Assembly (NCBI RefSeq): GCF_001677475.2
Contig: NZ_CP015229.1
DNA length: 64,000 nt
Strand: one strand, 5' to 3'
DNA from: Escherichia coli
Lineage (GTDB): Bacteria > Pseudomonadota > Gammaproteobacteria > Enterobacterales > Enterobacteriaceae
Positions within the stretch are counted from its first letter, which is position 1, and the number at the start of each line of letters is the position of its first letter. Below, in pieces: positions 5,929 to 62,612 of the stretch. Below the pieces are notes generated by a model. That model was not told the DNA's origin. It did not search any database and was given only the letters and a program-made list of their open reading frames with translations. The translations under genes and the position numbers were made by a program.

Positions 5929-5939
5929 GTCACGTCTCT

Positions 5940-8170: not shown

Positions 8171-8277
8171 CTGTCAGCGTATGTTATGAGCTGATTTCAC
8201 TTTTCCCATAACAGGTAAATAACGTTAATTATTCATTCCAGCGTTTATTTAAACCTTCCCTTTTTTTAGCATTTACT

Positions 8278-10204: not shown

Positions 10205-10716
10205 AGTGACACCTTCTTTACGGAGTTTTTCTTTATCAGCCAACTATGCGCTGATTGTTGTGTATATCGAGCGCAACTATAAAAAATTGCTCTGCAGAAA
10301 ATATTGCCAACATGCATGACAGACTCGTGTAAAAATCGTTCTAACATAGCAAATTATTGTCATTGCCGAAGCATGCAACACAGCGTTAATCAGTGTTGAA
10401 AGTAATAATTACTGTCAAACTTTCACAATAAAAAATTGTCATCATGATATAATAAAATTTAAACAAATATCACAATTCCCTTCCGCCAACCAAACCCAAC
10501 GAAATTTTATCCGCGATTAACCCCCTCAACCAACGCAATTAATTCACATTGAAACATCCACAAAATAACCAAGAAATTAATAACATATAGTTTATAAAAG
10601 CAATTTTATAATATTTGCCCTCTATTAATTTTTCTCATTAGCCGATTAAGTCAGCCATTCTTTTTCCTCGCTTTTTTTTATAGTCATATCGTCAAAAAAA
10701 TCCAGGCGAGGTCTTT
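10205..10716. promoter_or_regulatory. Divergent pduF / pduA control region
   Basis: 512-bp AT-rich intergenic region between divergent pduF and pduA with direct repeats of CAACCAA-like motifs. Confidence 0.6.
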
Positions 10717-11001
10717 ATGCAACAAGAAGCGTTAGGAATGGTAGAAACCAAAGGCTTAACTGCCGCCATAGAGGCCGCAGACGCCATGGTGAAGTCGGCA
10801 AATGTTTTGCTGGTCGGCTACGAAAAAATAGGTTCCGGGCTGGTGACAGTCATCGTTCGTGGTGATGTCGGGGCGGTAAAAGCGGCAACAGACGCAGGTG
10901 CCGCAGCTGCGCGTAACGTCGGCGAAGTAAAAGCCGTACACGTTATTCCCCGCCCACATACCGATGTCGAAAAAATCTTACCAAAGGGAATTAACCCATG
11001 A
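10717..11001 (+). CDS. pduA: Microcompartment shell protein PduA (BMC-H)
   Basis: 94 aa [30 protein letters not shown]..., matching Salmonella PduA as I recall it. Confidence 0.97.
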
Positions 11002-11810
11002 GCAGCAATGAACTGGTCAAACAGATCATGGCGCAGGTCATCGCTCGCGTAGCGACGCCAGAGCATGAGGTTCTCCCGAAAACCACTCATCAAATACGAG
11101 AGACGGCTATGGCAGAAAAAAGCTGCACGTTAACAGAATTTGTTGGCACCGCTATTGGCGACACTGTAGGTCTGGTCATTGCGAACGTTGATAGCGCCCT
11201 GTTGGACGCGATGAAACTTGAAAAACGCTATCGTTCCATTGGCATTCTGGGTGCGCGTATTGGCGCAGGGCCACACATTATGGCCGCTGATGAAGCGGTA
11301 AAAGCCACCAACACTGAAGTTATTAGCATTGAACTTCCTCGGGATACTAAAGGCGGTGCCGGACATGGCTCATTGATCCTCTTAGGTGGCAACGATGTTT
11401 CCGACGTGAAACGCGGTATTGAAGTCGCCCTGAAAGAACTCGATCGGACCTTTGGCGATGTCTATGCCAACGAAGCCGGACATCTTGAGCTGCAATATAC
11501 CGCCCGCGCCAGCTATGCACTGGAAAAAGCGTTTGGAGCACCATTGGGACGGGCTTGCGGCGTTATTGTCGGCGCTCCGGCTGCGGTGGGTGTTCTGATG
11601 GCCGACACCGCGCTGAAGTCCGCCAATGTGGATGTCGTGGCATACAGCTCCCCCGCTCAAGGCACCAGCTACAGCAACGAAGTCATTCTGATTATCTCGG
11701 GTGACTCCGGCGCAGTCCGCCAGGCGGTCATCTCCGCACGCGAAATCGGTAAAACCGTGCTTTCGACTCTCGGCGATACACCGAAAAACGATCGCCCTTC
11801 CTACATCTGA
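10998..11810 (+). CDS. pduB: Microcompartment shell protein PduB (tandem BMC); internal PduB' start near 11109
   Basis: 270 aa [14 protein letters not shown]... with internal start [14 protein letters not shown]. Confidence 0.95.
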
Positions 11811-11828
11811 ATTCTCTGAGGCAGATTT

Positions 11829-13493
11829 ATGAGATCGAAAAGATTTGAAGCACTGGCAAAACGCCCGGTCAACCAGGACGGTTTCGTTAAAGAGTGGATT
11901 GAAGAAGGCTTCATTGCGATGGAAAGCCCGAACGATCCTAAACCGTCAATCAAAATTGTTAACGGCGTCGTTACCGAACTGGATGGAAAACCCGCCAGTC
12001 AGTTTGACCTGATCGACCACTTTATCGCCCGCTACGGCATCAATCTCGCGCGCGCAGAGGAAGTCATCGCGATGGATTCGGTAAAACTGGCCAATATGTT
12101 GTGCGATCCAAATGTCAAACGTAGCAATATCGTTCCCCTTACCACAGCAATGACGCCTGCAAAAATAGTCGAAGTAGTTTCGCAGATGAACGTGGTAGAG
12201 ATGATGATGGCGATGCAGAAAATGCGCGCCCGTCGAACACCATCACAACAGGCTCACGTCACCAACGTCAAAGATAACCCGGTACAAATTGCCGCCGACG
12301 CAGCTGAAGGCGCATGGCGCGGGTTTGATGAACAGGAAACCACCGTTGCCGTTGCTCGCTATGCCCCGTTCAACGCCATCGCCCTGCTGGTCGGCTCACA
12401 GGTGGGACGCCCGGGCGTCTTGACCCAGTGTTCACTGGAAGAAGCCACCGAACTGAAACTCGGTATGTTAGGCCACACCTGTTACGCCGAAACAATTTCT
12501 GTCTATGGTACAGAACCTGTTTTCACCGATGGCGATGACACCCCGTGGTCAAAAGGATTTCTCGCGTCATCCTATGCTTCTCGCGGCTTAAAAATGCGCT
12601 TTACTTCCGGCTCTGGCTCTGAAGTACAGATGGGTTACGCGGAAGGTAAATCAATGCTTTATCTCGAGGCTCGTTGCATTTACATCACCAAAGCCGCAGG
12701 CGTTCAGGGCCTGCAGAGTGGTTCGGTAAGCTGCATCGGTGTTCCATCAGCTGTGCCATCAGGCATCCGCGCGGTATTAGCGGAAAACTTAATTTGCTCA
12801 TCGCTGGACCTGGAATGCGCCTCCAGTAATGACCAGACCTTTACCCACTCGGATATGCGCCGTACAGCACGTTTCCTGATGCAGTTTCTGCCAGGTACCG
12901 ACTTTATCTCTTCCGGTTTTTCCGCTGTGCCGAACTACGACAACATGTTTGCTGGTTCAAACGAAGATGCTGAAGACTTCGATGATTACAACGTCATTCA
13001 GCGTGACCTGAAGGTTGATGGCGGGCTGCGACCAGTACGCGAAGAAGATGTTATCGCTATCCGCAATAAAGCCGCTCGCGCTTTACAGGCTGTCTTTGCC
13101 GGTATGGGACTACCGCCTATTACCGATGAAGAAGTCGAAGCGGCAACCTATGCCCACGGTTCGAAAGATATGCCTGAGCGCAATATTGTGGAAGACATTA
13201 AGTTCGCCCAGGAGATTATCAATAAAAACCGTAACAGCCTGGAAGTGGTGAAAGCCCTGGCGCAAGGCGGTTTTACCGATGTCGCCCAGGCCATGCTCAA
13301 CATGCAAAAAGCAAAACTGACCGGCGATTATCTCCATACCTCAGCCATCATCGTCGATGACGGACAAGTGCTCTCTGCGGTCAATGACATCAATGATTAC
13401 GCCGGACCGGCTACAGGTTACCGCCTGCAAGGGGAACGCTGGGAAGAGATCAAAAATATTCCCGGTGCACTTGATCCCAACGAAATTGACTAA
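11829..13493 (+). CDS. pduC: B12-dependent propanediol dehydratase, large subunit
   Basis: 554 aa MRSKRFEALAKRPVNQDGFVKEWIEEG... Confidence 0.97.
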   Translation: MRSKRFEALAKRPVNQDGFVKEWIEEGFIAMESPNDPKPSIKIVNGVVTELDGKPASQFDLIDHFIARYGINLARAEEVIAMDSVKLANMLCDPNVKRSNIVPLTTAMTPAKIVEVVSQMNVVEMMMAMQKMRARRTPSQQAHVTNVKDNPVQIAADAAEGAWRGFDEQETTVAVARYAPFNAIALLVGSQVGRPGVLTQCSLEEATELKLGMLGHTCYAETISVYGTEPVFTDGDDTPWSKGFLASSYASRGLKMRFTSGSGSEVQMGYAEGKSMLYLEARCIYITKAAGVQGLQSGSVSCIGVPSAVPSGIRAVLAENLICSSLDLECASSNDQTFTHSDMRRTARFLMQFLPGTDFISSGFSAVPNYDNMFAGSNEDAEDFDDYNVIQRDLKVDGGLRPVREEDVIAIRNKAARALQAVFAGMGLPPITDEEVEAATYAHGSKDMPERNIVEDIKFAQEIINKNRNSLEVVKALAQGGFTDVAQAMLNMQKAKLTGDYLHTSAIIVDDGQVLSAVNDINDYAGPATGYRLQGERWEEIKNIPGALDPNEID

Positions 13494-13502
13494 GGGTGAG
13501 AA

Positions 13503-14171
13503 ATGGAAATTAACGAAAAATTACTGCGTCAGATTATCGAAGACGTGCTGGCAGAAATGCAAACCAGCGACAAGTCCGTTTCATTTCGCGCACCTGTCTC
13601 TGCAACTGCCTTTTCCGCGCCAGATACCGGAAATTTTCTGACCGAAATTGGCGAAGCACAACAAGGCACTCAGCAAGATGAAGTCATTATTGCTGTAGGC
13701 CCGGCGTTCGGCCTGGCGCAAACCGTCAATATCATCGGTATTCCGCATAAAAACATCTTGTGCGAAGTGATTGCCGGTATCGAAGAAGAAGGCATTAAAG
13801 CCCGTGTGATTCGCTGCTTTAAATCGTCCGATGTCGCATTCGTAGCAGTCGAAGGCGATCGTCTTAGTGGTTCAGGTATTGCTATCGGTATTCAGTCGAA
13901 AGGTACAACGGTTATCCACCAGCAAGGTCTTCCTCCCTTGTCTAACCTGGAACTTTTCCCACAAGCGCCTTTGTTGACGCTGGATACTTATCGTCAGATT
14001 GGCAAAAACGCCGCGCGTTATGCGAAGCGTGAGTCTCCACAACCGGTGCCGACCCTCAACGATCAAATGGCGCGGCCGAAATACCAGGCCAAATCTGCCA
14101 TTTTGCATATTAAAGAGACGAAGTACGTGGTCACTGGCAAAAAACCGCAAGAACTGCGCGTGACGTTTTAA
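13503..14171 (+). CDS. pduD: Propanediol dehydratase, medium subunit
   Basis: 222 aa; position and similarity. Confidence 0.95.
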
Positions 14172-14185
14172 CAAAGGAAACCTTC

Positions 14186-14704
14186 ATGAATACCGATGCA
14201 ATTGAGTCGATGGTCAGGGACGTGTTGAATCGCATGAACAGTTTACAGGATGCAGCTCCTGTTTCTGCGGTCCCCAACGCGTCAATACAGAGCGCCAAAG
14301 TGACGGATTACCCGCTGGCAAATAAACATCCGGAATGGGTTAAAACAGCGACCAATAAAACGCTCGACGATTTCACCCTGGAAAATGTGCTAAGCGATAA
14401 CGTCACCGCCCAGGATATGCGCATTACCCCTGAAACATTGCGTATTCAGGCTGCGATTGCCAGAGATGCTGGTCGCGATCGTCTGGCGATGAATTTTGAA
14501 CGCGCCGCTGAGCTTACCTCAGTACCGGATGATCGCATCCTCGAAATCTACAATGCGTTACGCCCTTATCGTTCAACTAAGCAAGAACTTATTGCCATTG
14601 CTGACGATCTTGAACGGCGTTATCAGGCCCAAATTTGTGCTGCATTTGTCCGTGAAGCTGCGGAACTTTATGTCGAGCGCAAAAAACTGAAAGGCGACGA
14701 TTAA
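14186..14704 (+). CDS. pduE: Propanediol dehydratase, small subunit
   Basis: 172 aa; position and similarity. Confidence 0.95.
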   Translation: MNTDAIESMVRDVLNRMNSLQDAAPVSAVPNASIQSAKVTDYPLANKHPEWVKTATNKTLDDFTLENVLSDNVTAQDMRITPETLRIQAAIARDAGRDRLAMNFERAAELTSVPDDRILEIYNALRPYRSTKQELIAIADDLERRYQAQICAAFVREAAELYVERKKLKGDD

Positions 14705-14713
14705 GGACGAACT

Positions 14714-16546
14714 ATGCGATATGTAGCAGGCATTGATATCGGCAACTCATCAACAGAGGTTGCGCTGGCAACGCTCAGTGCAACTGGAGAGTTGTCGTTC
14801 GTGAGTAGCGCCCTGGCGGAAACCACAGGAATTAAAGGTACGTTGCGTAACGTCCATGGTATTCAGGAGGCGCTCGCACAGGCAACGAAAAAAGTCGGCA
14901 TCAATGTTAGCGATATTTCGCTTATTCGTATCAATGAAGCAACCCCGGTCATTGGTGATGTGGCGATGGAAACCATCACTGAAACTATCATCACCGAATC
15001 AACCATGATCGGTCACAACCCGAAAACTCCGGGCGGAGTGGGGCTGGGCGTAGGGCTCACCATCACTCCGCAAGAGTTATTAACACGCCCGGCGGACACA
15101 CCTTACATTCTGGTGGTGTCATCGGCATTTGATTTTGCCGATATCGCGAAGATGATAAACGCCTCCGTACGAGCCGGATATCAGCTGACTGGCGTTATTC
15201 TACAACGCGACGATGGTGTGCTGGTCAATAACCGCCTGGAAATTCCTTTACCTATTGTGGATGAAGTCCTCTACATCGATCGTATTCCGCTCGGCATGCT
15301 GGCTGCAATTGAAGTTGCCGTTCCCGGGAAAGTTATCGAAACCCTGTCTAACCCGTATGGGATTGCCACCGTTTTCGCCCTCAATGCTGAAGAGACTAAA
15401 AATATTGTTCCTGTCGCGCGGGCGCTAATCGGCAACCGTTCAGCAGTGGTAGTGAAAACGCCCTCTGGCGACGTTAAAGCCCGTTCGATACCCGCCGGAA
15501 ATATCGAACTGCTTTCTGCCGGGCGCACAACGCGGGTTGATGTAGCTGCTGGTGCCGATGCCATTATGAAAGCGGTCGGTGAGTGCCCAAAACTGGAAAA
15601 CGTGACAGGAGAACCAGGCACCAACATCGGCGGAATGCTGGAACATGTTCGCCAGACCATGGCGGAACTGACCAACAAACCCAGCAACGAAATTTTTATT
15701 CAGGATTTGCTGGCGATAGATACCTCTGTCCCCGTCAGCGTAACCGGCGGTCTGGCAGGTGAATTTTCACTGGAACAGGCTGTGGGTATTGCTTCTATGG
15801 TGAAATCCGACCGTCTGCAAATGGCGATGATCGCCAGTGAAATTAAGCAAAAACTGCATGTTGATGTTCAGGTCGGAGGCGCAGAAGCAGAAGCCGCCAT
15901 TCAGGGGGCCTTGACTACCCCAGGAACCACACGTCCACTGGCAATTCTGGACTTAGGTGCAGGCTCTACCGATGCCTCCATCATCAATCAGAAAGGGGAA
16001 ATCGTTGCCACTCACCTTGCGGGAGCGGGCGACATGGTAACGATGATTATCGCTCGTGAGCTGGGCTTAAATGATCGTTATCTGGCAGAAGAAATCAAAA
16101 AGTACCCGTTGGCAAAAGTAGAAAGCCTGTTCCACTTACGCCATGAAGATGGCAGCGTTCAGTTCTTCCCTACTCCCCTATCCCCTCATGTATTCGCCCG
16201 CGTTTGTGTGGTGAAACCTGACGAACTGGTGCCTATTCCCGGTGATTTGACGCTGGAAAAAGTACGCGCTGTTCGTCGCAGTGCGAAAGAACGTGTCTTC
16301 GTAACCAATGCCCTGCGCGCGCTACGTCAGGTAAGCCCTGCCGGAAATATTCGCGACATTCCGTTCGTCGTTCTGGTGGGTGGTTCTTCGCTGGATTTCG
16401 AAGTACCGCAATTGGTCACCGACGCGCTGGCACATTATCGACTGGTCGCCGGGCGGGGGAATATCCGTGGTAGCGAAGGTCCGCGCAACGCGGTAGCTAC
16501 TGGGCTACTCATCGCCTGGCACAAGGAGTCGATTCATGGAAAGTAA
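14714..16546 (+). CDS. pduG: Diol dehydratase reactivase, large subunit
   Basis: 610 aa MRYVAGIDIGNSSTEVALA... (actin-like ATPase fold). Confidence 0.95.
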   Translation: MRYVAGIDIGNSSTEVALATLSATGELSFVSSALAETTGIKGTLRNVHGIQEALAQATKKVGINVSDISLIRINEATPVIGDVAMETITETIITESTMIGHNPKTPGGVGLGVGLTITPQELLTRPADTPYILVVSSAFDFADIAKMINASVRAGYQLTGVILQRDDGVLVNNRLEIPLPIVDEVLYIDRIPLGMLAAIEVAVPGKVIETLSNPYGIATVFALNAEETKNIVPVARALIGNRSAVVVKTPSGDVKARSIPAGNIELLSAGRTTRVDVAAGADAIMKAVGECPKLENVTGEPGTNIGGMLEHVRQTMAELTNKPSNEIFIQDLLAIDTSVPVSVTGGLAGEFSLEQAVGIASMVKSDRLQMAMIASEIKQKLHVDVQVGGAEAEAAIQGALTTPGTTRPLAILDLGAGSTDASIINQKGEIVATHLAGAGDMVTMIIARELGLNDRYLAEEIKKYPLAKVESLFHLRHEDGSVQFFPTPLSPHVFARVCVVKPDELVPIPGDLTLEKVRAVRRSAKERVFVTNALRALRQVSPAGNIRDIPFVVLVGGSSLDFEVPQLVTDALAHYRLVAGRGNIRGSEGPRNAVATGLLIAWHKESIHGK

Positions 16547-16886
16547 AGAGCGTGCACCAGCCATCGTCGTCATGGAGATCGGTGACTGTATCACTACATG
16601 GGATGAAGTGCTTCTTGGCATTGAAGAGGAAGGTATTCCCTTTCGCATTCAACACATTCCGTCAGGTGAAGTTATCGATAGCGCCTGGCTGGCTGCTCGT
16701 CAATCTCCCCTGTTGGTTGGCATTGCCTGCGATCAGGAAAAACTGATTGTACATTACAAAAACTTACCGGCATCAGCGCCACTGTTTACGCTGATGTATC
16801 AACAAGATAACCATGCCCGGCGCAGCATCGGCACTAACGCTGCCCGCCTGGTAAAAGGGATTCCCTTCCGGGAACTCCACTCATAA
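16536..16886 (+). CDS. pduH: Diol dehydratase reactivase, small subunit
   Basis: 116 aa; overlaps the pduG stop by 11 nt. Confidence 0.9.
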
Positions 16887-16905
16887 TCCACAGGAGAAAC
16901 GCAGT

Positions 16906-17181
16906 ATGAACAACGCACTAGGACTGGTTGAAACAAAAGGGTTAGTTGGCGCAATTGAAGCTGCAGATGCCATGGTTAAATCCGCCAACGTGCAACTGGT
17001 TGGCTATGAAAAGATTGGTTCGGGTCTGATTACGGTGATGGTCCGCGGTGATGTTGGTGCAGTAAAGGCCGCCGTGGATGCGGGGAGCGCTGCGGCAAGC
17101 GCAGTTGGCGAAGTGAAATCCTGCCATGTCATCCCGCGCCCACACAGTGATGTTGAGGCTATTTTACCTAAATCGGCATAA
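16906..17181 (+). CDS. pduJ: Microcompartment shell protein PduJ (BMC-H)
   Basis: 91 aa [29 protein letters not shown]... Confidence 0.95.
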
Positions 17182-17204
17182 CCCCATTTGCTAAGGAGCA
17201 CAGC

Positions 17205-17627
17205 GTGAAGCAATCACTGGGATTACTTGAAGTCAGTGGTCTGGCTCTCGCCATCAGTTGCGCAGACGCTATGGCAAAAGCCGCGTCCATCACGCTGGTT
17301 GGCCTTGAGAAGACCAATGGCTCAGGCTGGACGCTCATCAAAATCACCGGTGACGTCGCCTCGGTTAATGCGGCGATCGCGACGGGAGCCAGTTTCGCCG
17401 GACAGCGAAATGGCCTTGTCGCACACAAAGTGATTGCCCGCCCGGGAGACGGCATTCTGCCCCACACAACTGAAGCATTGACCGTGACGGTTGAAACAAG
17501 CAAAACACCAGCAACAACCGTCACCTCAGAGATTATCAGTTGTAATTTGTGTCTTGACCCGGCATGTCAGCGGCAAAAAGGTGAGCCCCGCTCACTTTGC
17601 CTGTACGCCAATAAGCGAGGGGAGTAG
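17205..17627 (+). CDS. pduK: Microcompartment shell protein PduK (BMC-H with C-terminal Cys-rich tail)
   Basis: 140 aa; BMC domain plus CNLCLDPAC motif. Confidence 0.9.
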   Translation: MKQSLGLLEVSGLALAISCADAMAKAASITLVGLEKTNGSGWTLIKITGDVASVNAAIATGASFAGQRNGLVAHKVIARPGDGILPHTTEALTVTVETSKTPATTVTSEIISCNLCLDPACQRQKGEPRSLCLYANKRGE

Positions 17628-17629
17628 CA

Positions 17630-18262
17630 GTGGATAAACAAACCCTGCAGGAAACAGTGAGCCAGATTCTGGATGAGATGCGCGAGCGCCCTATCCCACT
17701 GGGCGTTTCCAGTCGCCATATTCATCTTTCAACAGCGGATTATTTGCGTCTTTTTCCTGAACAACCGATTAGCGAGAAAAAGCCGTTAATGCAACCTGGC
17801 CAATTCGCTGCTGAACAGGTTGTTACGCTGGAGGGACCAAAAGGCAAATTGCACAACGTTCGCTTGTTGGGGCCGCTACGCAATGCAAGCCAGGTGGAAA
17901 TTTCCCGGACGGACGCCAGAACGTTAGGGATCACCGCCCCGCTACGCATGTCAGGCGATCTCAGCGGCACTCCGGGGATTCGTTTGATAAGCCCATTTGC
18001 GGAACTGGAGATCACATCTGGCGTCATTGTCGCGCAACGGCATATTCATATGTCTCCGCTGGATGCCCTGATTTATGGCGTTACGCATGGCGATAAATTG
18101 GCGGTTGCCATTGAAGGTGATGAGCGAGGACTGATATTCGAAAACGTCGCTGTTCGCGTCTCTCCGGATATGCGTCTTGAAATGCATATTGATACCGATG
18201 AGGCCAACGCCGCAGGCGCTGATAGCCCTGACGTTTTTGCCACACTGGTGTCAGTGCCATGA
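17630..18262 (+). CDS. pduL: Phosphate propanoyltransferase
   Basis: 210 aa; PduL/EutD-like duplicated fold. Confidence 0.9.
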   Translation: MDKQTLQETVSQILDEMRERPIPLGVSSRHIHLSTADYLRLFPEQPISEKKPLMQPGQFAAEQVVTLEGPKGKLHNVRLLGPLRNASQVEISRTDARTLGITAPLRMSGDLSGTPGIRLISPFAELEITSGVIVAQRHIHMSPLDALIYGVTHGDKLAVAIEGDERGLIFENVAVRVSPDMRLEMHIDTDEANAAGADSPDVFATLVSVP

Positions 18263-18750
18263 ATAACATGCTGATGCAACGTATTGTTGACGAAGTGGTT
18301 TTTCGCCTTAAACAACGTGCGGGAAAAGCACTCGTGCTGACTGTTTTTCAACTGCGAGACGCCAGCGTTCAAGAGAGCGTTCATCAGTATGCGTCATTAC
18401 AAATCCGATATGTCGATCTGCCGTTGTTACGACAACTTGCGGAGAACAAAACGTCAGATCGAGCAGCAATTCAGATACACGAAGCGTTAGCCTGGGGATT
18501 GCACATTCAATTGTCGTTGCAGCGTCATTTCCTGAACGCCATTGAATTGAAGACTCTCGCCCGTCTACCGCTAAGCTGGTGCGACGAGCAAGGGCAACCG
18601 ATCTACCTTCATCGTGATCGACTTTTAAGTTATGCCGATATTGCACAGTTAAGCTCGGGAATACTGGTGTTACAGCGAAAATGTTGTGTGACCGCACTGG
18701 CTCGTGAAGCGGCAATTACCCGAAATATTCAGTTAATCAGGCAGGAGTAA
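18259..18750 (+). CDS. pduM: Microcompartment structural protein PduM
   Basis: 163 aa; position between pduL and pduN. Confidence 0.85.
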   Translation: MNNMLMQRIVDEVVFRLKQRAGKALVLTVFQLRDASVQESVHQYASLQIRYVDLPLLRQLAENKTSDRAAIQIHEALAWGLHIQLSLQRHFLNAIELKTLARLPLSWCDEQGQPIYLHRDRLLSYADIAQLSSGILVLQRKCCVTALAREAAITRNIQLIRQE

Positions 18751-18753
18751 CCT

Positions 18754-19029
18754 ATGCATCTGGCTCGAGTCACTGGCGCGGTAGTATCCACGCAAAAATC
18801 ACCTTCTCTGATCGGGAAAAAACTGCTGCTGGTTCGCCGGGTCAGTGCTGACGGCGAACTGCCTCTCACGCCATTAACCGGCGACGAAGTTGCCGTTGAT
18901 TCCGTCGGCGCAGGCGTTGGTGAGTTGGTACTCCTCAGCAGTGGTTCCAGTGCCAGACATGTGTTTTCAGGCCCTAACGAGGCCATCGACCTGGCAGTGG
19001 TCGGCATTGTCGATACGCTTTCGCGCTAA
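18754..19029 (+). CDS. pduN: Microcompartment vertex protein PduN (BMC-P)
   Basis: 91 aa [15 protein letters not shown]... EutN/CcmL family. Confidence 0.9.
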
Positions 19030-19040
19030 GGAGCTGAAAG

Positions 19041-20048
19041 ATGGCAATTTATACCCGAACAGGTGATTCAGGAAGTACGTCTTTATTTACCGGACAGCGC
19101 GTCAGCAAAACTCATCTACGTGTCGAAACCTATGGCACGCTGGATGAACTGAACGCGACACTCAGTCTGTGTTATTGCGCCACCGCCATCGAAAGCCATC
19201 GCATCTTACTGGAAGCTATTCAACAACAGATATTTTGGTTTAGCGCCGAACTCGCCAGTGAAAGCGAACAGCCGTCAGCGCAGCAGCGTTACATCGGTAC
19301 GGAAGAAATTGCCGCGCTGGAAAACGCGATCGATAGCGCAATGAACGCCGTCCCCCCAGTTCACAGCTTCATTCTGCCTGGTCGATGTGAAGCCGCGAGC
19401 CGCATGCATTTCGCCCGCACAGTGGCTCGACGGGCTGAAAGACGTCTGGTTGAACTGACAACGGAAACCACCGTCCGGAAGGTTTTGCTGCACTATATCA
19501 ACCGACTTTCCGATTGTCTGTATGCCCTCGCCCGCGTGGAAGACAACGTTGCTCATCAAAACCTGATGATTCAGGAAATCACAAAACGTTATCACGAAGC
19601 CAACCATACACCAGCATTGAAGGAACGCACAATGCCGCTCACTTTTCAGGATCTTCACCAGCTCATTCGTAGTGCGGCAATGCGCGCAGATGAACTGCAT
19701 ATTCCCGTTGTCATCAGCATTGTTGATGCCAACGGAACAGAAAGTGTTACCTGGCGGATGCCTGATGCCCTGTTGGTCAGCAGTGAACTGGCACCGAAAA
19801 AAGCCTGGACCGCCGTGGCGATGAAAACGGCAACCCACAAACTTGCTGATACCGTGCAACCCGGCGCGCCGCTTTACGGGCTCGAAAGCCATATGCAAGG
19901 CAAAGTCGTCACTTTTGGTGGCGGCTTCCCCCTCTGGCGTGACGGAATATTGCTTGGCGGGCTTGGCATCAGCGGCGGTAGCGTTGAACAAGACATGGAT
20001 ATTGCTCAAAGCGCAATGGCGGCAATTAACGTGGGAGTAAACCAATGA
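19041..20048 (+). CDS. pduO: ATP:cob(I)alamin adenosyltransferase (PduO type, with C-terminal DUF336-like domain)
   Basis: 335 aa MAIYTRTGDSGSTSLFTGQRVSK... Confidence 0.95.
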   Translation: MAIYTRTGDSGSTSLFTGQRVSKTHLRVETYGTLDELNATLSLCYCATAIESHRILLEAIQQQIFWFSAELASESEQPSAQQRYIGTEEIAALENAIDSAMNAVPPVHSFILPGRCEAASRMHFARTVARRAERRLVELTTETTVRKVLLHYINRLSDCLYALARVEDNVAHQNLMIQEITKRYHEANHTPALKERTMPLTFQDLHQLIRSAAMRADELHIPVVISIVDANGTESVTWRMPDALLVSSELAPKKAWTAVAMKTATHKLADTVQPGAPLYGLESHMQGKVVTFGGGFPLWRDGILLGGLGISGGSVEQDMDIAQSAMAAINVGVNQ

Positions 20049-21430
20049 ATAACTCTGAATTAGAAACACTGATCCGCAATATTCTGCGCGAGCAACTTGT
20101 CCCCGCTACACCACGAACGCAAAGAAACGCTATTTTCCAGACTGTTGATGAAGCGGTCTGCGCAGCACACCAGGCCTTTTTACGCTTTCAACAGTGCCCG
20201 CTGAAAACCCGTAGCGCCATTATCAGCGCCATTCGCGAAGAATTAATGCCCCGCCTTACCGAACTGGCAGAAGAAAGCGCCAAAGAAACGGGGATGGGAA
20301 ATAAAGAAGATAAGTACCTAAAAAACAAAGCGGCACTCGATAACACGCCAGGAATTGAAGATTTAACCACCACTGCACTAACCGGTGATGGTGGCATGGT
20401 TTTGTTTGAATACTCCCCGTTTGGGGTTATTGGCTCGGTCACGCCGAGCACCAACCCCACGGAAACCATCATTAACAACAGCATCAGCATGCTGGCAGCA
20501 GGTAATAGCGTCTACTTCAGTCCACACCCGGGAGCCAAATACGTTTCGTTAAAACTGATTACCACAATCGAAGACATCGCGTTTCGCTGTAGTGGCATTC
20601 ATAACCTGATCGTTACCGTATCTGAACCGACCTTTGCTGCTACCGAACAGATGATGGCGCACCCTAAAATCAGCGTTCTGGCGATTACCGGCGGTCCGGG
20701 GATCGTCGCCATGGGAATGAAAAGTGGCAAGAAAGTGATTGGTGCCGGAGCGGGTAACCCTCCGTGTATCGTCGATGAAACGGCGGATATTGTGAAAGCC
20801 GTCGAAGATATCATCAACGGCGCTTCATTTGATTACAACCTGCCGTGTATCGCTGAAAAAAGCCTGATTGTCGTAGCATCAGTGGCAGAGTATTTAATTC
20901 AGCAGATGCAAAGTTTTGGCGCGCTTCTTCTTAACTATGAGCAAACGGAGAAATTGCGTGCAATTTGCCTGCCAGACGGTAGCGCCAACAAAAAACTGGT
21001 TGGGAAAAGCCCATCAGCCTTGCTGGAAGCGGCAGGCCTCCCTTTGCCCGCAAAAGCGCCGCGCCTACTGATTGCTGTTGTCGACGCCAATGATAGTTGG
21101 GTTACTTGTGAACAACTGATGCCAATGCTGCCCATTGTGAAGGTCAACGATTTTGATAGCGCTCTCGCCCTGGCGCTGAAAGTGGAAGACGGCTTGCACC
21201 ACACGGCAATTATGCACTCGCAGAACGTCTCACGGCTCAACCTTGCCGCACGCGTTATGCAAACCTCAATCTTTGTCAAAAACGGCCCCTCCTGGGCGGG
21301 TATTGGCGTCGGCGGCGAAGGCTTTACGACCTTTACCATTGCAACACCGACCGGAGAAGGGACAACGTCAGCACGGACTTTTGCCCGCTCACGACGCTGC
21401 GTGTTAACCAGCGGCTTTTCAATTCGCTAG
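20045..21430 (+). CDS. pduP: CoA-acylating propionaldehyde dehydrogenase
   Basis: 461 aa aldehyde dehydrogenase family with N-terminal encapsulation-peptide-like helix (MNNSELETLIRNILREQL). Confidence 0.95.
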   Translation: MNNSELETLIRNILREQLVPATPRTQRNAIFQTVDEAVCAAHQAFLRFQQCPLKTRSAIISAIREELMPRLTELAEESAKETGMGNKEDKYLKNKAALDNTPGIEDLTTTALTGDGGMVLFEYSPFGVIGSVTPSTNPTETIINNSISMLAAGNSVYFSPHPGAKYVSLKLITTIEDIAFRCSGIHNLIVTVSEPTFAATEQMMAHPKISVLAITGGPGIVAMGMKSGKKVIGAGAGNPPCIVDETADIVKAVEDIINGASFDYNLPCIAEKSLIVVASVAEYLIQQMQSFGALLLNYEQTEKLRAICLPDGSANKKLVGKSPSALLEAAGLPLPAKAPRLLIAVVDANDSWVTCEQLMPMLPIVKVNDFDSALALALKVEDGLHHTAIMHSQNVSRLNLAARVMQTSIFVKNGPSWAGIGVGGEGFTTFTIATPTGEGTTSARTFARSRRCVLTSGFSIR

Positions 21431-21440
21431 AGAAACGGAA

Positions 21441-22553
21441 ATGAATACTTTTTCACTGCAGACGCGTTTATACAGCGGACCGGGAAGTCTCAAGGTACTT
21501 AGCCGTTTCTCTCATAAACACATCTGGATTGTTTGCGACGTCTTTCTGGCACGTTCACCACTCATTGACACGTTGCATCAGGCGCTGCCCGACAGTAATC
21601 GTCTTAGTATTTTTAGCGAAATAACGCCCGACCCAACTATCCAGACCGTGGTGAAAGGCATTGCGCAAATGCAGACTTTACGCCCGGATGTGGTTATCGG
21701 TTTTGGCGGCGGTTCTGCCCTGGACGCCGCAAAAGCGATTGTCTGGTTCGGTCGCCAGTGTGGCATTGAAATTGAAACCTGCGTAGCCATTCCTACCACC
21801 AGCGGTACCGGTTCCGAAGTGACCAGTGCTTGTGTCATCAGCGATCCTGAGAAAGGGATTAAATATCCCCTTTTCGATAATGCACTTTATCCGGATATCG
21901 CGATCCTTGATCCATCTCTGATCGTCAGCGTGCCACCGGCGATAACGGCCAATACCGGGATGGATGTTTTAACCCATGCGCTTGAAGCTTATGTTTCTCC
22001 TCGCGCCAGCGACTTCACGGATGCACTGGTCGAAAAAGCCGTGCAAATTGTTTTTCAATACCTGCCCACTGCAGTGAAAAAAGGCGATTGTCTTGCCACC
22101 CGTGGCAAAATGCATAATGCATCGACGCTTGCAGGAATGGCCTTTAGCCAGGCCGGACTCGGTTTAAACCATGCAATTGCTCATCAACTCGGCGGACAGT
22201 TTCATCTGCCGCACGGACTGGCGAATGCGCTCCTGCTCACGGCAGTTATCCGCTTTAATGCTGGCGATCCGCGCACAGCCAAACGCTATGCCCGGCTGGC
22301 GAAAACGTGCCATTTATGCCCGGACAACGCCAATGACACCGCCAGCCTGAATGCACTTATTCAACATATTGAGCAGCTTAAAACAACCTGTACGCTGCCG
22401 ACTCTTACCAATGCGCTGAAAGAAAAAAAAGCAGAATGGTCAATACGCATACCAGATATGGTTCAGGCGGCACTGGCGGATGCAACGTTGCGTACCAACC
22501 CGCGTGCGGCTGATGCCTCCGCTATTGCAGAACTGCTCGAGGAGTTGTTATGA
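21441..22553 (+). CDS. pduQ: 1-Propanol dehydrogenase (iron-containing ADH)
   Basis: 370 aa Fe-ADH family. Confidence 0.93.
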   Translation: MNTFSLQTRLYSGPGSLKVLSRFSHKHIWIVCDVFLARSPLIDTLHQALPDSNRLSIFSEITPDPTIQTVVKGIAQMQTLRPDVVIGFGGGSALDAAKAIVWFGRQCGIEIETCVAIPTTSGTGSEVTSACVISDPEKGIKYPLFDNALYPDIAILDPSLIVSVPPAITANTGMDVLTHALEAYVSPRASDFTDALVEKAVQIVFQYLPTAVKKGDCLATRGKMHNASTLAGMAFSQAGLGLNHAIAHQLGGQFHLPHGLANALLLTAVIRFNAGDPRTAKRYARLAKTCHLCPDNANDTASLNALIQHIEQLKTTCTLPTLTNALKEKKAEWSIRIPDMVQAALADATLRTNPRAADASAIAELLEELL

Positions 22554-23893
22554 ACGTCGAGTTAACCTCCTGCGACGACCAGACCATCCGCGAGCGAGTA
22601 CAGGCAGCAGGTGTCGTGGGTGCAGGCGGCGCAGGTTTTCCAACCCATATTAAGCTACAAGCGCGTGTTGACACTTTCCTGGTGAATGCGGCGGAATGCG
22701 AACCAATGTTGAACGTGGATCAACAGTTAATGGCGCAGCAAGCCAGTCGCCTGCTTCGCGGTGTTCACTATGCGATGAAAGCCACCGGGGCCAGTAGCGG
22801 AATCATCGCGCTGAAAGAGAAATATCAACTGGCAATAAACGCACTCACACCACTGTTACCACCGGATATCCGCCTGCATATTTTGCCCGACGTTTACCCC
22901 GCAGGAGACGAAGTGCTGACCATCTGGATGGCAACTGGTCGCCGCGTTCCACCCGCTGCATTACCCGTTAGCGTCGGTGTGGTGGTCAATAATGTTCAAA
23001 CCGTACTTAATATTGCCAGAGCCGTCGAGCAACAGTATCCAGTGACGCGCCGCACACTCACCGTTAATGGTGCAGTGGCGAAACCAATAACGGTAACCGT
23101 CCCCATCGGCATGTCTTTACGTGAAGTCCTGGCGCTGGCGGGCGGCGCAACAGTGGATGCTCCTGGTTTTATCAATGGCGGACCGATGATGGGAAGTTTG
23201 ATCACATCGCTCGACACACCAGTCAGCAAAACCACTGGCGGCTTGCTGGTTTTACCCAACTCTCATTCACTGATCCAACGTCGAATGCAGAATGACCGCA
23301 GCGTACTTGCCGTCGCGAAAACTGTTTGTGAGCAATGCCGCTTGTGTACCGATCTCTGCCCACGTCATTTAATCGGTCACGAACTGGCACCCCATTTGTT
23401 AGTACGTGCGGTTAACTACCAACAGCTCGCTACGCCGCAACTGTTACTGACGGCGCTCACCTGTTCAGAGTGCAACGTCTGCGCCAGCGTCGCCTGTCCG
23501 GTAGGAATTTCACCAATGCGCATAAACCGCCTGCTTAAGCAGGAATTACGCGCACAAAATCTCCGTTACGAAGGTACCTTAAATCCTGCAGATCCCATGG
23601 CAAATTATCGACTGATTCCCGTAAAACGGCTGGTAACCAGACTTGGCTTAACCCCGTGGTATCAGGATGCGCCATTGTCTGAACAGGTGCCTCAGACCGA
23701 AAAAGTGACGTTATTGTTACGCCAGCACATCGGTGCCAGCGCAATTGCGTGTGTACAAAAAGGCGATCGCGTCGTTCATGGGCAATGTGTAGGTCAAATT
23801 CCACACGGCACATTAGGTGCCCCCATTCATGCCAGTATTGATGGCATGGTCAGCGATGTGACAGAAAACGCAATTACGCTTGTGAGAGGTTAA
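22550..23893 (+). CDS. pduS: Cobalamin reductase PduS (RnfC/Nqo1-like Fe-S flavoprotein)
   Basis: 447 aa with two 4Fe-4S Cys clusters ([25 protein letters not shown]). Confidence 0.93.
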
Positions 23894-23895
23894 CC

Positions 23896-24450
23896 ATGTC
23901 GAAAGCGGTAGGTATTTTAGAACTTAGCAGTATCGCGAAAGGGATGGAAACCGGCGACGCCATGCTGAAAAGCGCCAACGTTGAGTTACTGGTCAGCAAA
24001 ACGCTATGCCCCGGAAAATTTCTGCTGATGCTCGGTGGCGATGTGGGCGCGGTGCAACAGGCCATCAATAGCGGATCTTCCCTTGCTGGTGAAATGCTGG
24101 TCGACAGTCTTGTCCTGCCGAATATTCATCCCAGCCTCCTTTCTGCAATCAGCGGACTTAACCATGTTGAACAGCACCGGGCTGTCGGCGTAGTCGAAAC
24201 CTGGAGTGTCGCCGCCTGCATTGACGCAGCCGATTGTGCTGTCAAAGCTGCGAATGTCATTCTCGTTCGCGTACATATGGCTTTTGGCATTGGTGGTAAA
24301 TGCTACATGGTGGTTGCTGGCGATATTTCAGATGTTAATAACGCGGTCTCTGTTGCCAGCGAGCGTGCGGGGGAAAAAGGTTTGTTGGTCTATCGGTCAG
24401 TGATTGCCCGTCCACATGAAGCCATGTGGCGTCAGATGGTGGAGGGATAA
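23896..24450 (+). CDS. pduT: Microcompartment shell protein PduT (tandem BMC)
   Basis: 184 aa [29 protein letters not shown]... Confidence 0.93.
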
Positions 24451-24800
24451 TGACAACTCAGCACACAACTGAACGGATGATTCAGGAATATGTCCCTGGT
24501 AAGCAGGTCACGCTGGCACATGTCATCGCCAATCCAGGGAAGGATCTGTTTAAGAAATTGGGTTTACCAGACACCGTTTCTGCTATTGGCATTCTGACGA
24601 TTACCCCCAGCGAAGCATCTATCATCGCATGTGATATCGCCACAAAATCAGGCGCTGTAGAGATCGGTTTTCTTGATCGTTTTACCGGTGCCGTAGTGCT
24701 GACTGGTGATGTTTCTGCGATTGAATATGCACTTAGCCAGGTTACCCGTACGCTGGGTGAAATGATGCGCTTTACCGCTTGCCCCATTACGCGGACCTGA
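24450..24800 (+). CDS. pduU: Microcompartment shell protein PduU (permuted BMC)
   Basis: 116 aa from [39 protein letters not shown]; ATG overlaps the pduT TAA (TAATG); tracker ORF starts 8 codons upstream. Confidence 0.9.
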
Positions 24801-24804
24801 CGTT

Positions 24805-25248
24805 ATGCAACGTATGATGCTCATCGGCCCCAGCCAGTGCGGAAAAACGTCGCTCACGCAATGTCTGCGTGGCGAAAATATTCATTATCAGAAAACGCAG
24901 GCAATCGTCTGGTCCCCGACCACCATTGATACACCAGGCGAATACCTCGAAAACCGCAGCCTCTACAGTGCTCTGTTGGTCAGCGCCTGCGAAGCGGACA
25001 TTATCGCCCTGGTGCTTAATGCGGACGCACCGTGGTCCCCTTTTTCGCCAGGCTTTACCTCGTCAATGAATCGCCCGGTCATTGGAGTAGTAACCAAAGC
25101 AGATTTAGCCAGCATGGAACAAATATCTTTGGTGAAATGTTGGTTACGGGAAGCTGGAGCGCACAACGTGTTAGTAACCAGTGCGGTTAATAACAATGGA
25201 GTTACAGAACTTTTTGCCTTGCTGCATACAGAAGATGTCTGTCGCTAA
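24805..25248 (+). CDS. pduV: PduV (Ras-like GTPase-family microcompartment-associated protein)
   Basis: 147 aa with P-loop [10 protein letters not shown]. Confidence 0.9.
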
Positions 25249-33378: not shown

Positions 33379-33644
33379 GGTCATTCTCCTTTACGGTGAT
33401 AACCGTCGCGTAAGCAAAAAATTGCCCCATTTTTTTGGATTCCTCAGCGACAACAACTGTCGATTTTTAGTAAATATCTATCCGGTACGAAGCCCGGCCT
33501 CTTGGTATGAATGATTGGTTTGAAGCAAAAAATAACCGACGCTGATGAAACGTCGGTTTTTAGTCATTTTTTGACAGCGGCGCATTGTGCCTAAATAGGG
33601 GGGAAATGACAAGAGAATGAGAGGCTTGTCATAATAATTTTTCT

Positions 33645-35781: not shown

Positions 35782-36029
35782 TCAATAATGTCCTTTTCCG
35801 TTCCTTTGCCAGATTTCAGGCTATCGATTGAGTCCATCAATCTCCGGGCATTAGCGGGGGAACGCAGTAGATAAGCCGTCTCCTCCAGGGAGTTGTATTC
35901 TTCGAGTGACATCAGAACACAAGCCTCTCCATTCTGACGAGTAATAAGGATCGGGGCATGATCTTCAACGGCTTTCATCATTGTTGCCGACAAATTCTGA
36001 CGCGCTTCGCTGTAGCTAATTGTACGCAT
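35778..36029 (-). CDS. yefM: Antitoxin YefM
   Basis: 83 aa [58 protein letters not shown]... Confidence 0.95.
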
Positions 36030-36044
36030 GTTAATCTCCTCTTT

Positions 36045-36062
36045 TGTACATTTCATTGTACA
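36045..36062. promoter_or_regulatory. yefM-yoeB operator palindrome
   Basis: TGTACA-tttcat-TGTACA immediately upstream of the yefM start. Confidence 0.8.
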
Positions 36063-36312
36063 ATGATGGGCGTTAATTAACTATTTATTAATTAGTTTGT
36101 AGATCAAGATATTGTCAGTGAGTCGAAAAATACAGGCTTCGCTATTTTTGGTGCCGTCAGCTTAGAGGTCAGTCCTCTTAGCACCCTCCTTGCCCCGCTC
36201 ATTCATTAAACAAATCCATCGCCATAAAATATATAAAAAAGCCCTTGCTTTCTAACGTGAAAGTGGTTTAGGTTAAAAGACATCAGTTGAATAAACATTC
36301 ACAGAGACTTTT

Positions 36313-36363
36313 ATGACACGCGTTCAATTTAAACACCACCATCATCACCATCATCCTGACTAG
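36313..36363 (+). CDS. hisL: his operon leader peptide
   Basis: ATG ACA CGC GTT CAA TTT AAA CAC CAC CAT CAT CAC CAT CAT CCT GAC TAG = MTRVQFKHHHHHHHPD. Confidence 0.97.
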   Translation: MTRVQFKHHHHHHHPD

Positions 36364-36426
36364 TCTTTCAGGCGATGTGTGCTGGAAGACATTCAGATCT
36401 TCCAGTGGTGCATGAACGCATGAGAA

Positions 36427-36462
36427 AGCCCCCGGAAGATCATCTTCCGGGGGCTTTTTTAT
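36427..36462 (+). terminator. his attenuator (rho-independent terminator)
   Basis: AGCCCCCGGAAGATCATCTTCCGGGGGCT hairpin followed by TTTTTTATT, between hisL and hisG. Confidence 0.93.
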
Positions 36463-36508
36463 TGCGCGATTGATAACGGTTCAGACAGGTTTAAAGAGGA
36501 ATAACAAA

Positions 36509-37408
36509 ATGACAGACAACACTCGTTTACGCATAGCTATGCAGAAATCCGGCCGTTTAAGTGATGACTCACGCGAATTGCTGGCGCGCTGTGGCATTAA
36601 AATCAATCTTCACACCCAGCGCCTGATCGCGATGGCAGAAAACATGCCGATTGATATTCTGCGTGTGCGTGACGACGACATTCCCGGTCTGGTAATGGAT
36701 GGCGTAGTAGACCTTGGGATTATCGGCGAAAACGTGCTGGAAGAAGAGCTGCTTAACCGCCGCGCCCAGGGTGAAGATCCGCGCTACTTTACCCTGCGTC
36801 GACTGGATTTCGGCGGCTGCCGCCTTTCGCTGGCAACGCCGGTTGATGAAGCCTGGGACGGCCCGCTCTCCTTAAACGGTAAACGTATTGCCACCTCTTA
36901 TCCTCACCTGCTCAAGCGTTATCTCGACCAGAAAGGCATCTCTTTTAAATCCTGCTTGCTGAACGGTTCTGTTGAAGTCGCCCCGCGCGCCGGACTGGCG
37001 GATGCAATTTGCGATCTGGTTTCCACCGGTGCCACGCTGGAAGCTAACGGCCTGCGCGAAGTCGAAGTTATCTACCGCTCGAAAGCCTGCCTGATCCAGC
37101 GCGATGGCGAAATGGAAGAATCCAAACAGCAGCTGATCGACAAACTGCTGACCCGTATTCAGGGTGTGATCCAAGCGCGCGAATCAAAATACATCATGAT
37201 GCACGCACCGACCGAACGTCTGGATGAAGTCATCGCCCTGCTGCCAGGTGCCGAACGCCCAACTATTCTACCGCTGGCGGGTGATCAACAGCGCGTAGCG
37301 ATGCACATGGTCAGTAGCGAAACCCTGTTCTGGGAAACGATGGAAAAACTGAAAGCGCTGGGTGCCAGTTCAATTCTGGTCCTGCCGATTGAGAAGATGA
37401 TGGAGTGA
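36509..37408 (+). CDS. hisG: ATP phosphoribosyltransferase
   Basis: [34 protein letters not shown]...; start taken at MTDNT. Confidence 0.97.
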
Positions 37409-37413
37409 TCGCC

Positions 37414-39796
<2,383 letters not shown>

Positions 39797-39797
<1 letters not shown>

Positions 39798-40863
39798 TGA
39801 GTCAGAAGTATCTTTTTATCGATCGCGATGGAACCCTGATTAGCGAACCGCCGAGTGATTTTCAGGTGGACCGTTTTGACAAACTCGCCTTTGAACCGGG
39901 CGTGATCCCGGAACTGCTGAAGCTGCAAAAAGCGGGCTACAAGCTGGTGATGATCACTAATCAGGATGGTCTTGGAACACAAAGTTTCCCGCAGCCGGAT
40001 TTTGATGGCCCGCACAACCTGATGATGCAGATCTTCACCTCGCAAGGCGTACAGTTTGATGAAGTGCTGATTTGTCCGCATCTGCCCGCCGATGAGTGCG
40101 ACTGCCGTAAGCCGAAAGTAAAACTGGTGGAGCGTTATCTGGCTGAGCAAGCGATGGATCGCTCTAACAGTTATGTGATTGGCGATCGCGCGACCGATAT
40201 TCAACTGGCAGAAAACATGGGCATTACTGGTTTACGCTACGACCGCGAAACCCTGAACTGGCCGATGATTGGCGAGCAACTTACCAAACGAGACCGTTAC
40301 GCCCATGTAGTGCGCAACACCAAAGAGACGCAAATTGACGTCCAGGTGTGGCTGGATCGTGAAGGTGGCAGCAAGATTAACACCGGCGTTGGCTTCTTTG
40401 ATCACATGCTGGATCAGATCGCCACCCACGGCGGTTTCCGCATGGAAATCAACGTCAAAGGCGACCTCTATATCGACGATCACCACACCGTCGAAGATAC
40501 CGGCCTGGCGCTGGGCGAAGCGTTAAAAATGGCTCTTGGCGACAAACGCGGTATTTGTCGCTTTGGTTTTGTGCTACCGATGGACGAATGCCTTGCCCGC
40601 TGTGCACTGGATATCTCTGGTCGCCCGCACCTGGAATATAAGGCCGAATTTACCTACCAGCGCGTGGGCGATCTCAGCACCGAAATGATCGAGCACTTCT
40701 TCCGTTCGCTCTCATACACCATGGGCGTGACCCTGCACCTGAAAACCAAAGGTAAAAACGATCACCACCGTGTAGAGAGCCTGTTCAAAGCTTTTGGTCG
40801 CACCCTGCGCCAGGCCATCCGCGTGGAAGGCGATACCCTGCCCTCATCGAAAGGAGTGCTGTA

Positions 40864-40864
<1 letters not shown>
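39797..40864 (+). CDS. hisB: Bifunctional histidinol-phosphatase / imidazoleglycerol-phosphate dehydratase
   Basis: [27 protein letters not shown]...; ATG overlaps the hisC TGA. Confidence 0.97.
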
Positions 40865-42942
<2,078 letters not shown>

Positions 42943-42949
<7 letters not shown>

Positions 42950-43554
42950 CAGAACAACAACGTCGCGAACTGGACTGGGAAAAAACTGACGGACTGATGC
43001 CGGTGATTGTTCAACACGCGGTATCTGGCGAAGTGCTAATGCTGGGCTATATGAACCCGGAAGCCTTAGACAAAACCATCGAAAGCGGCAAAGTCACCTT
43101 CTTCTCGCGCACTAAACAGCGACTGTGGACCAAAGGCGAAACGTCGGGTAATTTCCTCAACGTAGTGAGCATTGCGCCGGACTGCGACAACGACACTTTA
43201 TTAGTGCTGGCGAATCCCATCGGCCCGACCTGCCACAAAGGCACCAGCAGCTGCTTCGGTGACACCGCTCACCAGTGGCTGTTCCTCTATCAACTGGAAC
43301 AACTGCTTGCCGAACGTAAATCTGCCGATCCGGAAACCTCCTACACTGCCAAACTGTATGCCAGCGGCACCAAACGCATCGCGCAGAAAGTGGGCGAAGA
43401 AGGCGTGGAAACCGCACTAGCAGCAACGGTACATGACCGCTTTGAGCTGACCAACGAGGCATCTGACTTGATGTATCACCTGCTGGTGCTGTTGCAGGAT
43501 CAGGACCTGGATTTAACGACGGTGATTGAGAACCTGCGTAAACGGCATCAGTGA
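42943..43554 (+). CDS. hisI: Bifunctional phosphoribosyl-AMP cyclohydrolase / phosphoribosyl-ATP pyrophosphatase
   Basis: 203 aa [42 protein letters not shown]... Confidence 0.97.
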
Positions 43555-62573: not shown

Positions 62574-62612
62574 CACGCTACCGCCCCTGGCTTTACAGCT
62601 ACCAGAGCACTG
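62574..62612 (-). promoter_or_regulatory. JUMPstart element with ops (RfaH-dependent antitermination site) in the O-antigen operon leader
   Basis: Minus strand reads CAGTGCTCTGGTAGCTGTAAAGCCAGGGGCGGTAGCGTG; ops core GGCGGTAGCGTG. Confidence 0.9.

Follow-up and report, generated by a model that had tools for sequence, protein, structure and literature searches.

The native hisL leader and transcription attenuator of the his operon in a 64-kb segment of the Escherichia coli chromosome

Positions 36313-36462 of the window, by which we mean the whole stretch of 64,000 nt of Escherichia coli DNA that was analysed, almost certainly represent the native hisL leader and transcription attenuator of the E. 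coli his operon, an element that acts by ribosome-mediated transcription attenuation. The element is canonical, already known, intact and in its native place. The evidence for this identity consists of the leader-peptide reading frame with its run of His codons, five helices with their folding energies, the conservation of both alternative folds, a family match and the operon context. The earlier note had described a canonical his leader peptide and attenuator, and this is supported by the full-length Rfam match, identity with the leaders of K-12 and Salmonella, the RefSeq annotation and the his ORFs, although the antiterminator pairings and the his pause signal had been left out; it had also taken the element as confirmation of the identity of the operon and not as a novelty, and rightly so. 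The element is ordinary and has been fully described before. The leader region serves solely as an anchor, marking the window as a segment of the E. coli chromosome, in the order cobUST-pdu ... yoeB-yefM-hisL-hisGDCBHAFI-wzzB-ugd-gnd-O-antigen cluster, in which the his operon retains its normal control region, and the his leader here raises no scientific question.

The hisL reading frame (36313-36363, + strand) has 16 codons followed by TAG and encodes the leader peptide MTRVQFKHHHHHHHPD. Sequence and translation place its start ATG at 36313 and its stop TAG at 36361-36363, and it reads ATG ACA CGC GTT CAA TTT AAA CAC CAC CAT CAT CAC CAT CAT CCT GAC TAG. The seven consecutive His codons (CAC CAC CAT CAT CAC CAT CAT; 36334-36354, + strand), which had been pointed out on first reading, are borne out by the sequence at the correct coordinates. 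This (CAY)7 run has a single occurrence in the 64-kb window, with both strands scanned, and was present in 0/100 dinucleotide-preserving shuffles of the window. A weak Shine-Dalgarno-like GAGA lies 6-9 nt 5' of the hisL ATG, with the same sequence in K-12. The homologous position is annotated hisL in strain KV7 and in K-12, and the RefSeq labels for the homologous stretch are 'hisL: his operon leader peptide' and 'His leader region'. Two further ORFs in this region found no support, namely a reverse-strand ORF at 36283-36354 (23 aa), which is merely the complement of the His run, and a + strand ORF at 36375-36473 (32 aa), which spans the hairpins.

When the whole window was searched with the Rfam 15 models, RF00514 (His_leader) was placed at 36339-36462 on the + strand, with 132.6 bits against a gathering score of 49 and E = 8.8e-22. 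The match spans model positions 1-126 of 126 and has its 3' end at coordinate 36462; all three consensus helices are formed and no non-canonical pair was flagged. The model begins within the His codon run and leaves the first 26 nt of hisL uncovered. None of the T-box or riboswitch models reached threshold in the hisG 5' region, His_leader being the sole Rfam match in 36000-36600, and the sole riboswitch match that the Rfam scan gave in the window is a cobalamin riboswitch at 8015-8189.

Directly 3' of the leader and on the same strand lies an intact hisGDCBHAFI operon, and the regulated span extends over 36493-43554. The hisG Shine-Dalgarno sequence AAAGAGG (36493-36499, +) precedes the hisG ATG at 36509, which is 47 nt downstream of 36462. 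The genes hisG (36509-37408), hisD (37414-38718), hisC (38715-39797), hisB (39797-40864), hisH (40864-41454), hisA (41454-42191), hisF (42173-42949) and hisIE (42943-43554), all on the + strand, encode proteins above the NCBIfam cut-offs of the HisG, HisD, HisC, HisB (bifunctional), HisH, HisA, HisF and HisIE models, respectively. The order of the his genes is the same as in KV7, and synteny matches K-12 and KV7.

Within this operon, hisC (38715-39797) carries (CTGG)7 at 39300-39329, where KV7 is four codons shorter with approximately 4 CTGG units. The expansion is in-frame, adds 12 nt and duplicates LAGW, giving a HisC of 360 aa versus 356 aa. A 160-nt query spanning the site matched 5195 complete E. 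coli genomes, and the expansion is present in none of these, every match being at most 95% identical and the best ones extending over 148 nt. The exact 360-aa HisC is on record from 14 contigs (e.g., ANO89798.1), for which reason an assembly artefact was rejected as the source of the 12-nt insertion and the expansion is regarded as a real but rare lineage allele.

Regarding transcription of the leader, the putative his promoter hisLp (36245-36274, + strand) comprises a -35 element TTGCTT (36245-36250), an 18-nt spacer and a -10 element TAGGTT (36269-36274); these hexamers are assigned by reference to the Salmonella/E. coli his promoter. The window agrees with the K-12 promoter sequence at every base. 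A simple consensus scan called no sigma-70-like site upstream of hisL, because each hexamer matches the consensus at just 3/6 positions, and the attenuator terminator was similarly not called by a simple consensus terminator scan, because the A/U extension of its stem uses up the T-run that the rule of the scan requires. As the hexamers are weak and the T-run is absorbed in the stem extension, the missed calls were not counted against either feature. The transcription start is placed at 36282, since the landmarks +46-56, +126-134 and +187-195 of PMC10989985 are self-consistent only with that +1, and G127/U128/G129 of the same study map to 36408-36410. Counted from this putative start, the terminated leader RNA would be approximately 177 nt long.

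The predicted his RNA-polymerase pause position lies at 36383 (+ strand), with the RNA 3' end at U36383, 11 nt past the pause hairpin; the exact nucleotide is presumably this one, as assigned from the his pause literature. The pause hairpin is the apical part of helix A:B, with a 5-bp stem and an 8-nt loop at 36355-36372, and the pause-site bases read from the sequence are G-10 at 36374, Y-1 at 36383 and G+1 at 36384. The block 36355-36385 is invariant in 58/58 aligned sequences and identical to K-12, and 36355-36384 is, judged by its sequence, the E. coli hisL pause element. The hisL pause of E. coli is dependent on three factors, the hairpin, G-10Y-1G+1 and NusA, and has been proposed to couple transcription to translation (PMC9291695).

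Comparative evidence on the pairings was drawn from leaders of other genomes, found by scanning for the pattern CAY x7-CCN-GAY-TAR in one genome per species of bacteria and archaea. The scan gave 76 loci, all in Enterobacteriaceae or in unclassified 'Proteobacteria' MAGs. The resulting alignment holds 58 sequences (56 distinct full-length leaders, the window and K-12), corresponding to 57 distinct leaders for the pairing counts, a sample selected by the exact H7-P-D-stop pattern.

The 153-nt leader folds at -69.1 kcal/mol compared with -36.4 +/- 3.9 kcal/mol in shuffles (z = -8.5), and the five helices of the two mutually exclusive folds all form locally, with energies from -12.1 to -32.9 kcal/mol. 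Helix A:B (1:2; 36346-36381, + strand, -12.2 kcal/mol), formed by A at 36346-36359 and B at 36368-36381, is the first helix of the Rfam consensus and is paired in 100% of cells across the 57 distinct Enterobacteriaceae leaders. Helix C:D (3:4; 36381-36406, + strand, -12.6 kcal/mol) belongs to the terminating state, has 9 bp and an 8-nt loop, is the second helix of the RF00514 consensus and is 99.6% paired. Helix B:C (2:3; 36363-36390, + strand, -12.1 kcal/mol), the first hairpin of the antiterminator state, is mutually exclusive with both A:B and C:D and is 100% paired in the 57 leaders. The antiterminator, helix D:E (4:5; 36396-36441, + strand, -15.4 kcal/mol), pairs GAUCUUCC (36396-36403) with GGAAGAUC (36434-36441), by which the 5' half of the terminator is sequestered, and its main helix is 99.4% paired in the same 57 leaders. 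Local folding gives B, C, D and E two possible partners each, in helices that exclude one another, a layout that we take to be the six-segment architecture of the his attenuator; that architecture is said to go back to Johnston and colleagues in 1980. The scheme of AB/CD/EF versus BC/DE is also used in PMC10989985.

The fifth pairing, helix E:F (5:6; 36420-36462, + strand, -32.9 kcal/mol), is the intrinsic terminator or attenuator, corresponds to the third Rfam consensus helix and is 97.9% paired. Its G+C-rich core GCCCCCGGAAGA/TCTTCCGGGGGC (36428-36454) forms a 12-bp stem, 36428-36439 with 36443-36454, around a 3-nt loop TCA (36440-36442), is followed by a T6 U-tract at 36455-36460 and alone folds at -24.2 kcal/mol; an A-rich run upstream can lengthen the stem. 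A strong terminator hairpin had been reported to follow hisL, and folding confirms the hairpin itself; it does not, however, follow directly, as an interval of approximately 60 nt lies between, which holds the alternative-pairing segments B, C and D and the pause site.

Taking the 57 leaders together, 99.0% of cells are paired in the terminating fold and 97.7% in the antiterminating fold, against approximately 37-54% in slid controls, in which the partners were displaced by 1-3 columns. Compensatory covariation in these leaders amounted to 1 pair (3 cells) in the terminating fold and to 0 pairs in the antiterminating fold. Because the stems are almost invariant the covariation test is uninformative, and the comparative support consists of the conservation and the slid control. 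Such invariance is expected, since each segment serves two partners and partly also the reading frame and the pause signal.

Regarding the switch between the two folds, successive prefixes of the transcript were folded with 12 nt hidden in the polymerase and the ribosome footprint masked. With no ribosome, A:B formed, C:D came next and the terminator was nucleating by the last prefix; with the ribosome at the stop codon, C:D formed and nucleation of the terminator had begun by the last prefix. With the His codons masked and polymerase at 36405-36411, B:C was the MFE structure of the exposed RNA, and with the ribosome at His5 and polymerase at 36453-36459 the MFE structure was B:C plus D:E. Under the His5 mask the antiterminator was the MFE structure once E was exposed and before F had been made, with the 5' arm of the terminator sequestered; under the His7 mask C:D was favoured and prefix folding did not reproduce the antiterminator. 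Simple MFE models thus reproduce the antiterminated state only partly, when the stall is placed mid-run. When the full leader was folded at equilibrium with the ribosome masked on each His codon, the terminator was kept in every case, and a purely thermodynamic switch was rejected on these grounds; as equilibrium folds always keep the terminator, the switch must be kinetic and take place during transcription.

The mechanism proposed for this leader is the classical one. Transcription would begin at the his promoter, at about 36282, and RNA polymerase, having transcribed hisL, would pause at U36383 behind the small A:B pause hairpin; a ribosome could meanwhile load on hisL, and translation would be coupled to transcription. 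The His codons at 36334-36354 are the putative regulatory codons, at which the ribosome would stall under scarce His-tRNA. With charged His-tRNA plentiful, the ribosome would pass all seven His codons as far as the TAG at 36361-36363 and cover B, upon which C:D and E:F would form and E:F, with its U-tract, would release polymerase at approximately 36458-36462, yielding a leader RNA of the length estimated above. With His-tRNA scarce, the ribosome would stall within the run and cover A only, B:C would form and D would be left free to pair with the emerging E, so that no terminator arises and polymerase continues into hisGDCBHAFI. If hisL were untranslated, A:B, C:D and E:F would all form and termination would be maximal. 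Pausing, coupling, the response to His-tRNA and the exact ends of the leader transcript are parts of this scheme that we infer by analogy with the E. coli and Salmonella his leaders.

In the his leaders of K-12 and Salmonella, read-through rises as charged His-tRNA falls, whether by starvation or through defects in hisS, hisR or hisT. The his operon is not known to have a repressor protein. The trp leader trpL has two Trp codons, compared with seven consecutive His codons in the his leader, and four segments, compared with the six segments and two stacked alternative pairs of the his leader. Other enterobacterial attenuators that work through the ribosome (trpL, pheL, thrL, leuL and ilvL) follow the same logic as his (PMC9291695; PMC1183508), with a short leader ORF rich in cognate codons and a pause site, hairpins that form either an antiterminator or a terminator, and biosynthetic genes preceded by an intrinsic terminator. 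The same attenuation mechanism and pause have been described for E. coli hisL in PMC9291695, which also summarises the read-through response to low charged His-tRNA, and de-attenuation requires a translating ribosome (PMC10989985).

An alignment with the E. coli and Salmonella his leaders, which the earlier note had suggested as a check, agrees with the identification, giving 149/150 identities to each (for Salmonella, to subsp. diarizonae). In K-12 MG1655, hisL (b2018; NC_000913.3 2089996-2090046) encodes an identical peptide, the identity of 149/150 holds over 36313-36462, and 222 consecutive bases (36221-36442) are the same; K-12 and the window agree fully in the promoter, in all five pairing segments, in the pause signal and in the U-tract, and the neighbours are also the same, with yoeB-yefM upstream and hisG downstream. 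The only difference within the 150-nt leader is at 36443 in the terminator loop, which is T in the window versus C in K-12; outside the leader proper, 36469 is A in the window versus G in K-12. T36443 pairs with A36439, adding one A-U pair and reducing the loop from 5 nt (AUCAC, in K-12) to 3 nt, and the energy of the terminator is -32.9 kcal/mol in the window versus -32.2 kcal/mol in K-12, a change of -0.7 kcal/mol. A 39-nt query for the T allele (36424-36462) matched 470/5426 complete E. coli genomes, in 465 cases with an identity of at least 99%, and T36443 is the Rfam consensus and the state of 38/58 aligned sequences. It appears to be a common natural allele and a neutral-looking polymorphism, the energetic effect predicted by folding being negligible.

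A 341-nt leader query (36180-36520) found a match in 5423/5426 complete E. coli genomes, at places annotated as hisL or His leader region and hisG, and no match in the other 3/5426. One of the matches among complete E. coli genomes is plasmid-borne.

Outside E. coli, the E. albertii leader has 1/150 difference from the window. In Salmonella enterica, for which the leader with seven His codons and the six-segment model were reportedly first worked out, by Barnes in 1978 and by Johnston and colleagues in 1980, subsp. diarizonae CCUG 30040T has 1/150 difference, A to T at 36461 in the U-tract, and subsp. arizonae CCUG 6322T has 3/150, consisting of a synonymous change of His7, A36386G and the change at 36461. 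Peptide, helices and pause block are the same in these two subspecies as in the window, whereas the U-tract of Salmonella is an uninterrupted T8 run and that of the window and K-12 is T6-A-TT.

In the 58 sequences, variation occurs in codons 2-3 of hisL and at the third position of His7, in the loops of C:D (36391-36395) and of the terminator (36440-36443), in the D-E spacer (36413-36426) and at 36461. The third position of His7 (36354) is T or C in a ratio of 46:12 and is unpaired, in an internal loop of A:B. The sole common in-stem change, A36386G, turns an A-U of C:D into G-U and a U-A of B:C into U-G and fits both folds. Across genera, hisL varies most in codons 2-3, and the ATG lies 3 nt further downstream in Pseudocitrobacter (L011 and L015) and Trabulsiella (L054 and L062), giving a 15-residue leader peptide, with the sequence reading ATT ATG TGC... 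or TTT ATG AGC.... Trabulsiella odontotermitis TbOT1.10 (L060:1190-1345, - strand) has ten consecutive His codons by way of a 9-nt in-frame duplication (CAC CAT CAT), with the rest of the attenuator unchanged; L062, another strain of this species, has seven.

A modified reading retains the classical attenuator and adds DnaA as a protein ligand, making the leader a 'DnaA-dependent riboswitch' (Yao et al., 2023; PMC10989985); we regard this as unlikely for the element described here. In that proposal DnaA binds box-like sequences of the leader RNA (boxes 1/2 before A and box 3 between D and E), favouring the terminating fold and blocking D:E, and the study reports de-attenuation in dnaA mutants and upon deletion of +48-54 or +128-134, together with in vivo RIP enrichment. 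The box-like sequences are present in the window and identical to K-12, with ATTTAAACACC at 36327-36337 (boxes 1/2) and GGTGCATGA at 36407-36415 (box 3), but each 'box' has two mismatches to the consensus, and the deletions also take out codons of hisL or the spacer between D and E, a loss that would in itself upset the classical mechanism. Moreover, the authors found no binding of DnaA to RNA in vitro and direct binding was not established by them (PMC10989985). A fourth box (36468-36476), found unimportant in the same study, has a third mismatch in the window, where 36469 is A and not G as in K-12.

It seems rather improbable that the invariance of the stems and of the 31-nt block 36355-36385 across 58 leaders from many Enterobacteriaceae genera reflects a further constraint in addition to dual pairing, coding and pausing, for which a protein partner such as DnaA (PMC10989985) or a trans-acting role of the abundant terminated leader RNA of about 177 nt could be candidates; the overlapping known constraints already explain the invariance.

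That the leader is a decayed, non-functional relic, with the his operon expressed constitutively or from other promoters, is very improbable. The his operon of this strain does carry one change that looks private, namely the repeat expansion in hisC, and in the terminator loop it has an allele shared by a minority of E. coli (470/5426 genomes); yet from promoter to terminator the sequence is identical to the functional K-12 leader bar that one loop base, which itself matches the Rfam consensus and 38/58 aligned sequences and makes the terminator slightly more stable, and the ORF is intact together with its start and stop codons, as is every helix. The chance that a His-rich short ORF merely happens to stand beside an unrelated terminator, or that the regulator belongs to another class, such as T-boxes, metabolite riboswitches or attenuators mediated by a protein, is vanishingly small; nothing was found in favour of this reading, and against it stand the absence of (CAY)7 from the shuffles, His_leader as the sole Rfam family here, near-complete conservation across genera and a position directly before hisG.

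In the neighbourhood of the leader, yefM and yoeB lie upstream on the opposite strand, as in K-12 and KV7. The yefM-hisL intergenic region holds further elements at 36043-36066 and 36162-36184. Two short palindromes containing TGTACA adjoin the yefM start there and presumably match the YefM-YoeB operator. The same region has a hairpin-like inverted repeat, CTTAGAGG...CCTCTTAG, with one mismatch in the window, whereas its K-12 counterpart is a perfect 8-bp stem, CTAAGAGG/CCTCTTAG.

Further upstream, a complete propanediol-utilisation island occupies 8278-25248, with pocR and pduF on the - strand and pduA to pduV on the + strand. The pdu stretch (18 kb) is at least 80% covered in 636/5426 complete E. 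coli genomes, with a best identity of 98.4%. In KV7, the best match for the his leader, the corresponding site is occupied by a CP4-44-like prophage remnant and a truncated pduV. The cobalamin riboswitch (RF00174, 109.5 bits, 8015-8189, - strand) lies upstream of a 168-aa ORF followed by cobU-cobS-cobT (together 4849-7865, - strand), the ORF being annotated 'hypothetical protein' in strain UTME-8, and by analogy this riboswitch-cobUST layout suggests the remains of a Salmonella-type cbi/cob operon leader after loss of cbi.

Regarding other RNA elements, Rfam matches above the gathering score include STnc230 (9253-9336, + strand, 76.3 bits), STnc240 (33525-33599, - strand, 68.6 bits) and tRNA-Asn(GTT) (3721-3796, + strand). 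A JUMPstart element (62574-62612, - strand, 60 bits in Rfam) stands ahead of a - strand gene cluster at approximately 47.8-62.5 kb, which is, judged by where it lies with respect to galF, gnd, ugd and wzzB in KV7, the O-antigen cluster.
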